From Escherichia phage EC.P1: 64,000 nucleotides of DNA. A model generated the notes under the pieces. The model did not search any database. It saw only the letters and a list, made by a program, of their open reading frames with translations, and was not told the origin of the DNA. Location of the stretch: sequence record PQ657772.1. One strand, written 5' to 3'. The position numbers and the translations under genes are program-made. Shown piece after piece: positions 1 to 2,649 of the stretch; within the stretch, counting starts at the first letter, position 1, and every line of letters begins with the position of its first letter.

Positions 1-1245
1 AGGCTTATAGTTGTCATGCTTCATATGAACCCATACTGCTTCAAAGTCAGTACCACCACCACCTTTCACTGGATATTCGAGAATCTTACTCTCTTCACCA
101 GTTTTGTAATCTTTCACAGTATAAACTTCAGTATCGAACGTCATGATACGGATTTTAAATTGTTTAAACTGCTTAGTGATACCCAGTACTTCACTGATGA
201 AATCACGGAGCATATCTTCAGAGATAGAACCGGATGCATCTAGTGCAATTGCAATATCAATATCATCATCTGGTTTCATACCAGGGAAGATTGGATTCCC
301 GTAGAATGAACCAGAACTACCAAAACCAGCACCCCATGAACGACGATTAGGATTTTGATAAGTTGCATCAGACTTCAACCAGCTACGCAGTGTGCGGTGA
401 AGTTTAGAACGCCAGTCGATCTTTGGTTCTTTGAAGTTGTTAATCATACGTGCGATTTCAGCAGGAGTACCACCTGCACGAGCAGCATTCATCATTGCTG
501 TTTTGAAATCATCCATATAATCACGTTTTTGTTTATCACTTGAACCACCTTCTTGACCTTCTTGTGGAACGTCATGCTGGTCGATTGTTGTACCTTTGCC
601 TTTACCATCTTTGATATCACCAAAAGTACCGCGTGATTTACCTTCACCCTCACCACTACCAGCCTGTGGATTTCCTTCACCTTCTCCGTCTTGATCCTGC
701 TTATCTTCTTCTTCGAGAATGTTATAAATCTCTTCAGCAGTCATACCATCGTACTTTTTATCGTACAGCCATTGGCTTTGGATTTTACCAATTTTATCAC
801 GAACAAGAATCTGGTTAATTGCATAGTCAGCAGCACGGTTATAACGCTGCGGGTCACGCATACCACGACGCAAGAAGTGGTCATATGCACAGTGAAGAAT
901 TTCATGACAGATAACTGCAATCAGGTTTTCATCGGTCAAACCTTCTGTCATTTCTTTAAGTTGTTCTTCAGTTACTTCAGGATGTTTCTCACGAATTGCT
1001 TCTTCGTATGCTGACTTTTTGGATTGGTCCTGAATACCCATGATGAATTCTACGTTGTAGAATAAATGCTTACCATCTACAGCCAAAGTACGACACCATG
1101 TGTTGTTTGCAACTGGACGCAGACGAGAAGCCAGTACACCAAAGAATGGGAATGTTAGCATTAAAGATGTGCGAGCTAAGATCAGACGATCTTGACATTC
1201 TTTCTGGAGAGCCGGAGTAACATCACTGAAACGTTTATCTGACAT
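1..1245 (-). CDS. VWA-domain protein with N-terminal HExxH region (CobT-like partner of the MoxR ATPase); 3' end runs off the window
   Basis: Minus-strand frame read by eye from ATG at 1243-1245 (MSDKRFSDVTPALQKECQDRLILARTSLMLTFPFF...), contains HEILHCAYDH; RBS GAGG upstream; not in ORF track because truncated. Confidence 0.55.
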   Translation of the reverse strand, partial: MSDKRFSDVTPALQKECQDRLILARTSLMLTFPFFGVLASRLRPVANNTWCRTLAVDGKHLFYNVEFIMGIQDQSKKSAYEEAIREKHPEVTEEQLKEMTEGLTDENLIAVICHEILHCAYDHFLRRGMRDPQRYNRAADYAINQILVRDKIGKIQSQWLYDKKYDGMTAEEIYNILEEEDKQDQDGEGEGNPQAGSGEGEGKSRGTFGDIKDGKGKGTTIDQHDVPQEGQEGGSSDKQKRDYMDDFKTAMMNAARAGGTPAEIARMINNFKEPKIDWRSKLHRTLRSWLKSDATYQNPNRRSWGAGFGSSGSFYGNPIFPGMKPDDDIDIAIALDASGSISEDMLRDFISEVLGITKQFKQFKIRIMTFDTEVYTVKDYKTGEESKILEYPVKGGGGTDFEAVWVHMKHDNYKP

Positions 1246-1270
1246 TTGTATTTCCTCGTTTAGTTAAGAT

Positions 1271-1296
1271 AAAAGAAGGATACCATGTGGTATCCT
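1271..1296 (-). terminator. intergenic hairpin (GGATACCA/TGGTATCC) followed by U-run on the minus transcript, between ATPase and VWA genes
   Basis: Inverted repeat at 1278-1295 preceded on the plus strand by an A-run. Confidence 0.4.
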
Positions 1297-1320
1297 CCTT
1301 GTCAACACTCTTTTTAATTA

Positions 1321-2649
1321 TTAACCAAGAGAGCGTGCTTTACGTACTAGGTCAGAGTACTTCATAACGAAGTCTTTAAACGCTGGTACATCTTTAATCG
1401 TAATCGCTACTTTATGAAGCGTGATGGTACGAATCGCCAGTACTGCCAGTTCTGCTTGAGTTGCAGAGAAGTTATGGTCTAGGAAGGTGATGAAGTTGTT
1501 GCACAGCTTACCCCAATCTTCCACTGGTAGACGTTGTTCTTGCTTCTCATTGTAGAGGTCGATAATTTTGTAAACCAGATTCAGAGTGATGAAGTAGTTC
1601 GCGGAAATATCAAGCGAAGCATCAATCTCTTTAATCTCACCCTGTAGGATGGACATGGTATCTGGTAGTTTAGCTACGTTATCAACATACTCGATGTATT
1701 CAGTTGCTACGCCTTCACCAACACGACCTGCAATCATCGCACGGAACACTTCTTTATCAATGTTCTTAACTTTCTTCAGATCTTCGTAGCGTGCTACTGC
1801 TTCCCATGAACGTGGAGAAGTACCACCACAGTGAGAAGGATCTTGTGGGCTAAGGGTGTTGAAGTGTTTAGCACCAGTGTTGTTGATGAACGCTACAGTT
1901 GCTGGGTTCAAACGCTTACCAATCGCATAATCGTTAATCCAATCTTGATGATAAGGAATCATTTCGATGTGGGTCATACGGTCACGCAGTGGTGTAGCTA
2001 GAGAGAACGTTACACCGCCATCAGTTTCACGGTTACCTGCTGCGAGAATCAGTGCAGTCTTAGGTAGCTTCATCTCACCAACACAACGGTCGAGGATTAG
2101 CTGATAAGACGCTGCCTGTACAATCGGCATTGCAGAGTTGATTTCGTCAAACAGAATAACACCTTTCCAATCTGGAGACAGTTTCAGTACTTTAGGTGCT
2201 GCCCACACAACTGCTGTTTCAGCGATGTAATCTTGTGCACTAGCCAGTTCAGATTCAATCAGTTGCTTACCATCCATATCAAGGAACACTTTCTCTGGAA
2301 CTGGGATACCGCGAAGGTCACTTGGTTCAATCTGAGACAAACGGAAATCGATAAAGTTAGTGTCTTGGTCGATTAGTTTGGCTTCAAACGCTGCCAGTTC
2401 ACGGCGAAGTTGATCAGCATTTTCAGTATCAGCTTCGATTTGTTGTTTCATGAACTCAATTTTTGCCACGTTATCTTTACGCAGTGGGTAGTTCTCATCA
2501 GCGTATTGACGTGCGATAGCAGATTTACCGATACCAGGGCTACCCCAAATCATCAGGCTATCTTGAATCATGTCAGCCAGTGCCATTGCTTCTTTAGCTT
2601 TCTTAGGAGTCAGTTTTACGTTCAGGATATCGTTGTTTTGAGTAGACAT
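1321..2649 (-). CDS. MoxR/CobS-like AAA+ ATPase
   Basis: 442 aa; Walker A GSPGIGKS; AAA+ layout; directly followed by a VWA partner gene. Confidence 0.8.
   Translation of the reverse strand: MSTQNNDILNVKLTPKKAKEAMALADMIQDSLMIWGSPGIGKSAIARQYADENYPLRKDNVAKIEFMKQQIEADTENADQLRRELAAFEAKLIDQDTNFIDFRLSQIEPSDLRGIPVPEKVFLDMDGKQLIESELASAQDYIAETAVVWAAPKVLKLSPDWKGVILFDEINSAMPIVQAASYQLILDRCVGEMKLPKTALILAAGNRETDGGVTFSLATPLRDRMTHIEMIPYHQDWINDYAIGKRLNPATVAFINNTGAKHFNTLSPQDPSHCGGTSPRSWEAVARYEDLKKVKNIDKEVFRAMIAGRVGEGVATEYIEYVDNVAKLPDTMSILQGEIKEIDASLDISANYFITLNLVYKIIDLYNEKQEQRLPVEDWGKLCNNFITFLDHNFSATQAELAVLAIRTITLHKVAITIKDVPAFKDFVMKYSDLVRKARSLG

Follow-up and report, generated by a model that had tools for sequence, protein, structure and literature searches.

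The window analysed in this study is a stretch of 64,000 nucleotides (nt) from Escherichia phage EC.P1 (sequence record PQ657772.1), and the subject is a pair of adjacent genes at its beginning. The first gene in the direction of transcription encodes a MoxR-class AAA+ ATPase, and the second encodes a VWA protein whose N-terminal domain carries the zincin-type motif HExxH. The evidence leaned, on balance, towards a motor and an adaptor that would work together in the early or middle phase of infection as an ATP-driven remodelling protease on a host or phage protein, and would not be a late assembly factor. An early or middle non-structural role was favoured with moderate confidence, on the basis of promoter class and gene context. 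MoxR-VWA pairs were already known, and the initial annotation of this DNA had correctly recognised a known module; the pair itself is no discovery. Added here are the promoter-class and context argument for early or middle expression, the leader hairpins, the intergenic terminator, and the conserved flanking genes.

Positions 1..3400 of the window were 100% identical to Escherichia phage fEgEco12 (PP777464.1, 374.7 kb), whose gene numbers are used below. Identity over the same positions was 87% with the 121Q/PBECO4/phAPEC6 group and about 71% with Klebsiella phage RaK2. The source phage belongs to the Rak2/121Q-like group of T4-related jumbo myoviruses. Nearly all genes of the window are on the minus strand, including the ATPase/VWA pair and its signals, and the features described below are on this strand. 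The genome paper of fEgEco12 makes no statement on the ATPase or the VWA gene. The PADLOC models for anti-phage defence gave no match for either protein, and NCBIfam gave no meaningful match for the pair.

The ATPase gene (g308, phrog_1297) is an open reading frame (ORF) of 442 codons at 1321..2649, with a PHROG match at 2.9e-105. It was aligned with 25 relatives with identity down to 35%. Residues G36, G39, K42, and S43 of the Walker A motif GSPGIGKS (residues 36–43; 2521..2544) and D168 and E169 of the Walker B motif ILFDE (residues 165–169; 2143..2157) were invariant. A203, A204, G205, N206, and R207 of the motif AAGNR (2029..2043), R224 of PLRDR (1978..1992), and R280 of SPRSW (1804..1818) were invariant as well. 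N206 ends the model strand E200-206 and is a candidate sensor 1, R224 is a candidate arginine finger, and R280 is a candidate sensor 2; all three sit at the expected places of the model, and their roles were assigned by position only. A motif D-x-R-L...D-x-R-G-x-P was also invariant in the alignment. The best-conserved motif, Q-x-E-P-x-D-L-R-G, is the segment between strands 2 and 3, which is the site of the helix-2 insert.

The AlphaFold model of the ATPase had a predicted local distance difference test score (pLDDT) of 84.9. By DSSP, the strands at residues 115–124 and 141–150 of the model make up a beta-hairpin inserted between strands 2 and 3, and strand 200–206 is preceded by a small hairpin. 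The ATPases of jumbo phages carry two inserts that are absent from shorter relatives of about 370 residues: the first is a helical pair after the Walker A helix, and the second is the extended hairpin between strands 2 and 3. When the model was compared with the PDB by Foldseek, the top 12 matches were all NorQ (E 4e-07 to 7e-06; target-normalised template modelling scores of 0.53–0.62), and CbbQ2 was found at rank 16. A profile of the ATPase matched midasin among PDB sequences (E 1e-4), and single-sequence searches of the PDB with each protein of the pair gave nothing significant. The protein appears to be a divergent, catalytically intact member of the MoxR class, as judged from its conserved residues and its model. 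By analogy with its structural matches, it probably forms a hexamer.

The assignment to Pfam was less direct. The ATPase itself scored below the thresholds of AAA_3 (17.9 bits, cut-off 27) and AAA_5 (15.5 bits, cut-off 22). At E ≤ 0.001, 10 of the 25 relatives matched AAA_5 and 10 matched AAA_3, and the bpMoxR model was matched by 6. The initial annotation had named a Pfam search as a check of its domain assignments. That check succeeded for the partner protein, which passed the thresholds of DUF2201_N and DUF2201, but for the AAA+ protein it was successful through the ten relatives with each family and not through the phage sequence itself.

The partner gene (g309, phrog_1314) occupies 1..1245, where 415 of its 469 codons lie within the window and another 165 nt lie beyond the window start. 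The full protein was taken from an identical GenBank record (L001:5836-7245). The completion of the gene beyond the window, which had been suggested earlier, gave a protein of 469 residues with both the HExxH motif and the VWA domain. The segment HEILHCAYDH (residues 114–123; 877..906) contains the HExxH motif HEILH (residues 114–118; 892..906) and a third histidine five residues past the second histidine of HExxH. In 24 relatives the His, Glu, His, Cys, and His of this segment were invariant (H118, E119, H122, C123, and H127 in the numbering of P0121). The metal-ion-dependent adhesion site (MIDAS) was complete and invariant across the same relatives. It consists of the DxSxS motif DASGS (residues 336–340; 226..240), the Thr of GGGGTD (residues 395–400; 46..63), and a second Asp in FTDG, just outside the window start. 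A motif A-x-D-Y-x-x-N was invariant too. The protein matched DUF2201_N, a 'putative metallopeptidase' family, with 126.4 bits (cut-off 23.2; 2e-36), and DUF2201, a 'VWA-like' family, above the Pfam threshold (7.6e-13). The earlier descriptions of a 442-residue AAA+ ATPase and of an HExxH partner with a VWA-like region were both upheld by these results, the former by the invariant Walker motifs and the NorQ and CbbQ2 structures. The N-terminal domain of the partner is a putative zincin-type peptidase, and protease activity is suggested by its sequence motifs.

The structure of the partner was modelled on a 90%-identical relative. The model showed a helical N-terminal domain, a disordered linker rich in Gly, Asp, and Glu, a helical segment, a conserved loop of low confidence, and a compact VWA domain. 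The loop covers about residues 293–327, just N-terminal of the VWA domain, and contains NRRSW (334..348). It has invariant Pro, Arg, Pro, and Gly residues and a nearly invariant Trp, and its pLDDT was below 50. This loop is proposed as a candidate contact with the ATPase pore, likened to the finger of NorD (PMC13036017).

In many GenBank phage records, proteins of the phrog_1314 type are tagged 'HNH endonuclease' or 'homing endonuclease', including N4 gp25 and the proteins of GAP32, CBB, PVP-SE1, and Bacillus phage G; g309 of fEgEco12 bears the former name. This label was considered for the partner and rejected: no HNH family in Pfam or NCBIfam matched, and the name stems from the label of phrog_1314. 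It appears to be a propagated annotation error.

The two genes were linked over a wide range of viruses. By tblastn, the VWA protein was found in 724 of 50,697 phage records, which included Rak2-like jumbo phages, rV5-like and PVP-SE1-like myoviruses, N4-like podoviruses, and Bacillus phage G. Relatives of the ATPase were found in at least 597 viral stretches of IMG/VR. Among the best 80 of those loci, a DUF2201 gene followed on the same strand in 69; 9 contigs were truncated, and 2 had room for such a gene and lacked it. The order was thus kept in 69 of 71 informative viral contigs, and the MoxR-VWA pair architecture proposed by the initial annotation was confirmed. In loci from cellular genomes and metagenome-assembled genomes, the ATPase was detected in full in 20 of 22, where it lay upstream of the VWA gene on the same strand.

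Among known systems, the nearest in sequence and arrangement was phage N4. N4 gp24 and gp25 are homologous to the ATPase and the VWA protein (profile E 2.7e-57 and 7e-40), and the 2012 annotation of RaK2 named its pair gp24-like and gp25-like. N4 too has the ATPase gene before the VWA gene, the two are likewise separated by a non-coding gap, and the gene that follows them, for dCTP deaminase, belongs to nucleotide metabolism. The N4 proteins are shorter (352 and 380 residues); the two ATPase inserts are missing, and so is the one that follows the first beta-sheet of the peptidase domain. The same combination of a MoxR AAA+ protein and a vWA protein with an N-terminal metallopeptidase was described by Iyer, Anantharaman, Krishnan, Burroughs, and Aravind for jumbo phages of group 2.2 (Viruses 2021, PMC7824862). 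These authors proposed virion assembly with proteolytic processing, and promoters, terminators, and conserved flanking genes are not mentioned there. Membership of Asteriusvirus in group 2.2 was not confirmed from the main text of that paper. A virus-encoded MoxR and VWA pair is also present in Acidianus two-tailed virus (as cited in PMC7824862); this is an archaeal virus whose pair has no peptidase domain, and it is likened to the phage pair by description only.

The best solved-structure matches of the ATPase came from NorQ/NorD, which inserts iron into nitric oxide reductase, and the Rubisco activase CbbQ/CbbO. In both systems a MIDAS-bearing VWA partner is encoded adjacent to the ATPase, and the layout of the phage partner, with an N-terminal domain, a flexible linker, and a VWA domain, is that of NorD. 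The differences were considerable. Identity of the ATPase with NorQ and CbbQ was 12–15%, and NorQ has about 255 residues compared with 442 here; the phage protein contains additional inserts, both helical and hairpin, and also a helical domain at its C-terminus. An HExxH domain is absent from NorD and CbbO, and the model of the phage partner showed no evident finger within the VWA domain. The initial annotation had also called the pair CobS/CobT-like. This holds at the superfamily level, where the aerobic cobaltochelatase CobS/CobT is of the same broad AAA+ class with a VWA-containing partner, but neither phage protein matched the CobS or CobT family models (E ≤ 0.1), CobT has no HExxH peptidase-like domain, and the nearest structures were NorQ and CbbQ.

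The likeness to these systems raises the alternative of a metal-cofactor insertase of the CobST, BchID, or NorQD kind, which would supply metal to an enzyme of the phage or the host, such as one of nucleotide metabolism, and in which HExxH would handle metal and not cleave protein. The closest solved structure, NorQ, belongs to an iron insertase, MoxR-VWA systems typically insert metals (PMC13036017), and enzymes of nucleotide metabolism are common neighbours of the pair. Nevertheless, no match was found to the CobS, CobT, CbbQ_C, NorD, or chelatase families, apart from a sub-threshold Mg_chelatase hit at the P-loop. No large subunit like CobN or BchH was found nearby, and the 49 kb of annotation around the pair contained no CobN-like gene. 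The Glu of HExxH is invariant, which is a hallmark of a catalytic zincin, and Pfam classes the domain as a putative metallopeptidase. An insertase is therefore considered highly improbable.

For the favoured remodelling protease, a mode of action can be drawn by analogy with NorQ/NorD and CbbQ/CbbO. In the cryo-electron microscopy study of NorQD, a finger of the VWA protein is inserted into the MoxR ring, whose pore is lined by the helix-2 insert, a C-terminal contact is made with the post-sensor-1 loop, and ATP-driven rotation stretches the linker between the VWA and N-terminal domains of NorD (PMC13036017). Its authors suggested that this mode is general for AAA+ proteins with VWA partners (PMC13036017). 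The same docking and stretching are proposed for the phage pair because the partner has the layout of NorD and the best-conserved motif of the ATPase lies at the helix-2 insert. The ATPase would form a hexamer with the region of the helix-2 insert lining the central pore. The VWA protein would dock on this ring and hold a target protein via the MIDAS metal. Hydrolysis of ATP would then twist or stretch the long flexible linker between the VWA and N-terminal domains, and this movement would remodel the target, exposing it to the zinc peptidase or switching the peptidase on. Transcription of both genes would start at two consensus promoters used by the host sigma70 RNA polymerase, and the leader hairpin and the intergenic terminator would tune the output so that more ATPase than adaptor is made. 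Host sigma70 promoters with tuning hairpins would place the action of the pair in the early or middle phase, before assembly.

Two consensus sigma70-type promoters were found upstream of the ATPase. The distal promoter P1 (2913..2940) and the proximal promoter P2 (2821..2848) both read TTGACA-N16-TATAAT with a TG extended -10 element, matching the consensus at 12/12 positions. P1 is preceded by an A-rich UP-like tract (2941..2960) and P2 by an A-rich tract (2849..2869). P1 was matched at 11/12 in PBECO4 and 12/12 in A4, P2 was matched at 12/12 in both, and RaK2 has one 12/12 promoter in the equivalent gap. The two sites belong to a 55-nt direct repeat whose copies share 82% identity and lie at a distance of 92 bp. 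The two near-identical promoters with extended -10 elements claimed by the initial annotation were thus found as described, and they lie outside the range 1..2649 which that annotation covered. P1 and P2 were the only perfect sigma70 matches in the 64 kb; shuffled sequences gave an expectation of 0.35, and two or more occurred in 5 of 100 shuffles. A third, weaker promoter-like site, TTTACT-N17-TATAAT (10/12; 2690..2718), lies 40 nt before the ATG and was kept within Asteriusvirus only.

Sites were classed as strong when they matched at 11/12 or more, or at 10/12 or more with TG. The window has 30 such strong sigma70-like sites, every one of them on the coding strand, and the motif therefore carries signal in this phage. 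Most of these sites lie at 18–63 kb, among small genes of unknown function, where GGGACA-N16-TATAAT and TAGACA-N16-TATAAT recur, both with TG. In GAP32, CBB, and XbC2, the gap equivalent to that upstream of the ATPase contains TGAAACG and TGgTATAAT, and BF has a close variant. According to the CBB paper, this class is a second promoter type, concentrated before DNA-synthesis genes and distinct from the late ATAAATA type (PMC5259590). Among 62 non-identical gaps upstream of ATPase genes, 60% had a match at 11/12 or better, compared with 0% of shuffled gaps and 4.8% of the other same-strand gaps of these loci. A T4 MotA-box middle promoter, prompted by TGCTTA in RaK2, was also considered and was rejected since its spacing did not fit and the motif was absent in fEgEco12.

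The coding strand of the window contains only 7 copies of the late-type motif ATAAATA, 4 of which lie 35–57 nt before the structural genes g303, g302, tail-tube, and tail-sheath, whereas none was found on the coding strand before the ATPase or the VWA gene. Positions of the motif on the minus strand include 6873, 7395, 10268, 11105, and 14171, and this T4-late-like motif has been reported for CBB and GAP32. The N4 genes gp24 and gp25 belong to the middle transcripts of that phage and to a core set of only 14 genes in N4-like phages (PMC4193335). The N4 pair is transcribed by the N4 middle RNA polymerase (PMC4193335), which differs from the host-type promoters here. The 3' side of the pair in fEgEco12 has two small genes, then a DUF2493/SLOG protein, and then thymidylate synthase. 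In distant viral contigs the neighbours included a 5'-3' exonuclease, GTP cyclohydrolase I, a HIT-family protein, and CoaE, and in a Brucella pecoris element they were DNA ligase and the beta clamp. An early or middle role was favoured because the promoters are of sigma70 or 'DNA-synthesis' type, ATAAATA is missing, and the neighbours belong to nucleotide metabolism and replication.

Several observations weigh against an early or middle protease. In every Rak2-like phage examined, among them fEgEco12, PBECO4, RaK2, GAP32, CBB, and BF, the pair lies directly after the structural-gene block and on the same strand. Mass spectrometry of purified phAPEC6 virions detected the ATPase with 6 peptides and 19% coverage (PMC7247149). 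The proposed timing was deduced from promoter motifs and from N4. No significant solved zincin structure was found for the peptidase-like domain; in fold searches the matches came mainly from the VWA domain, and the best match of a profile against PDB sequences was MJ1213 at E 0.71. The hairpin HP1, described below, lies between the consensus promoters and the ATPase start, and P1 and P2 may therefore drive the ATPase inefficiently. The promoter enrichment at distant loci also shrank when the loci were clustered at 60% ATPase identity: 71 of 114 loci fell into one cluster, and a match at 11/12 or better was present in only 4 of 19 clusters. The enrichment is a trait of two large lineages and not of the whole family, and the candidate of a family-wide promoter feature was dropped.

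The first two of these observations are those expected if the pair were a virion-assembly chaperone and protease, in which the two proteins would assemble the tail or head and the peptidase would trim structural proteins (Iyer et al. 2021). This proposal was published for the group 2.2 jumbo phages (PMC7824862), and a MoxR-VWA system acts in the tail development of Acidianus two-tailed virus (as cited in PMC7824862). On the other hand, the phAPEC6 virion list also includes thymidylate synthase, which is non-structural, and the VWA partner is missing from it (PMC7247149). Neither gene is preceded by ATAAATA, a motif that stands before the neighbouring structural genes, and the promoters that are found are of host sigma70 or 'DNA-synthesis' type. 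The N4 homologues are middle genes beside dCTP deaminase, and the pair is accompanied by genes of replication and nucleotide metabolism in distant phages and in one cellular element. A role in assembly is thus possible and was considered rather unlikely.

The leader of the ATPase gene has a conserved layout. Read along the minus strand, the upstream gene ends at a stop codon (2966), after which come P1, P2, the hairpin HP1 and then UUUACUUUUG, the hairpin HP2 with the weaker 10/12 site overlapping it, a ribosome-binding site, and the ATG (2649). HP1 (AAAGGAACUG...CAGUUCCUUU; 2716..2758) has a U-rich tail, ACUUUUG, is terminator-like or attenuator-like, and lies between P1/P2 and the ATPase start. 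HP2 (GCCCACGGAUUGGC; 2696..2709) is small with a conserved YGGA loop (CGGA here), and its support is moderate since it is short. Compared with shuffled sequences, the 165-nt leader folded with z = -3.4, and HP1 and HP2 together with z = -3.76. The order of promoter, U-tailed hairpin, and YGGA hairpin was also present in PBECO4, A4, RaK2, SE_PL, GAP32, CBB, XbC2, and BF. The stems of HP1 vary among phages (GGAACUG, GGACUG, GCACUGA) with complementarity kept, and the stems of HP2 covary (CCAA/UUGG, GCUU/AAGC, CAAA/UUUG). In EJP2 the equivalent hairpin lies upstream of a 12/12 promoter, and this promoter then faces the gene directly. An Rfam scan of 1..3400 (E ≤ 1) gave no family, and the leader motif occurs once in the window. 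The element could attenuate transcription, terminate the upstream operon, or form the 3' end of a short leader RNA. The earlier statement that the pair is under tandem promoters can be kept in part: the promoters are real and conserved, but the conserved terminator-like HP1 between them and the ATPase had been omitted.

The position of HP1 also permits a regulatory explanation, which is compatible with any functional model of the pair. In this explanation, most transcripts from P1 and P2 would stop at HP1 as short leader RNAs (about 105 and 197 nt), and expression of the ATPase would depend on the weaker site at 2718..2690 or on regulated read-through; HP1 would then act as an attenuator or form the 3' terminus of a small RNA. 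In accord with it, a U-tailed HP1 follows the promoters in Asteriusvirus, RaK2, SE_PL, GAP32, CBB, XbC2, and BF, HP1 folds better than shuffled sequences (z = -3.8), as does the whole leader (z = -3.4), and neighbouring genes are likewise preceded by a terminator and then a TATAAT-type site. It is at odds with EJP2, where the hairpin is upstream of the 12/12 promoter, with the interruption of the U-tract (UUUACUUUUG), and with the single occurrence of the motif in the window and the lack of an Rfam family. This explanation was considered unlikely.

At 9500..9510, 10288..10376, and 15133..15212, several structural genes are preceded by a canonical terminator hairpin and then a TATAAT-type element without a -35 element, as in GGGGCTTTTTTT...GTATAATA and GGGGTCTTTTTTT...TGTGATATAATG. 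The ATPase leader is laid out alike. A leader peptide in the 5' leader (ATGATTCATGAAGTAACAAAGGAACTGATAAGTTAA) was rejected as a candidate, since the ORF was not conserved in RaK2, GAP32, or CBB and its ribosome-binding site was unclear.

A further hairpin lies between the ATPase and the VWA gene. This intrinsic-terminator-like element (1266..1300) consists of a stem-loop at 1300..1273 with 12 bp (5 GC pairs) and a 4-nt loop, followed by the U-rich tail UUUUAUCUU. Its folding energy was -17.5 kcal/mol (z = -5.75), which was equalled by 0 of 200 shuffles. A hairpin was present at the same intergenic position in 10 related phages with unrelated stem sequences, and in all 5 ATPase lineages that have a gap there. 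The intergenic hairpin noted in the initial annotation therefore exists and is conserved. Termination is predicted, and a conserved terminator at this place fits the need for more ATPase, as a hexamer, than adaptor. A promoter-like site, TTGACA-N17-TATCCT (10/12, TG; 1277..1305), overlaps the hairpin, and RaK2 has TTTACA-N17-TATCCT. In the ATPase-VWA gaps of more distant loci, a match at 11/12 or better was found in 29 of 42, with one lineage dominating.

The genes that flank the pair were also conserved. Immediately upstream of the ATPase, at 2966..3343, is the gene of a small protein of 125 residues, here called S (g307, phrog_15638, unknown function). By BLASTP, S matched a 131-residue ORF upstream of an ATPase of about 32% identity (E 5e-11). 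A profile of S found exactly one homologue per locus in 87 loci, and in 82 of them it was directly upstream of the ATPase on the same strand (gap -4 to 352 nt). The loci with S included contigs whose ATPase was only about 30% identical. S was always a stand-alone protein of about 112–148 residues, with the motifs F/W-x-N-x-R...G-L-R-L-S/T-x-x-G, L-D-R...P-Y-Y, and G-D. It had no Pfam match, and a profile search of the PDB gave nothing. The label 'transcriptional regulator HdfR' was not supported by Pfam, NCBIfam, or PDB. No S homologue was found in 30 loci, mostly alphaproteobacterial and Saccharibacteria genome loci, and none was detectable in the N4 region.

Downstream of the pair, protein D (g311, 217 residues, phrog_15894) is encoded on the minus strand at L001:4840-5493, which is 507–1160 nt outside the window start. 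D had no Pfam match. It matched a 194-residue ORF equally placed downstream of the VWA gene in distant viral contigs (E 7e-18), and at least 27 loci carry a homologue, a minimum that reflects how much flanking sequence was examined. The other neighbours did not align: the 130-residue structural protein g306 gave no alignment with the 95-residue ORF upstream of S in distant contigs, and the 76-residue g310 gave none with the 80-residue ORF downstream of the VWA gene in locus L008. The results suggest a conserved block of S, ATPase, VWA protein, small ORF, and D, which may be either a functional module or inherited synteny. In the PA5oct-like Pseudomonas phage Deifobo (L011), four genes lie between the ATPase and the VWA gene, including a 498-residue 'homing endonuclease', and S is 1.5 kb upstream of the ATPase; the module of ATPase, VWA protein, and S is loosened in this lineage.

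A wider proposal would take the pair as the core of a larger module, made up of S, the ATPase, the VWA-zincin, the small ORF, and the D protein of about 200 residues, and expressed from host-type consensus promoters before assembly. During takeover, the module would use ATP and MIDAS targeting to degrade or remodel a protein of the host or one associated with replication, a role unlike the virion assembly proposed in the literature, and the conserved leader hairpins would be a gene-specific regulatory RNA. This proposal is tentative and, as a whole, rather doubtful. Elsewhere in the window, at 30490..30722 on the minus strand, the sequence CGTCCAAAATTTGAGAA recurs as a direct repeat at a spacing of about 150 nt within a 233-nt non-coding gap.

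The ATPase/VWA pair is one of the few gene sets common to very different virulent phages. If the favoured reading of an early ATP-driven targeted protease is true, the pair would be a widespread tool for host takeover or for the support of replication, and this could be tested directly in Escherichia coli phages such as N4 and the 121Q group.

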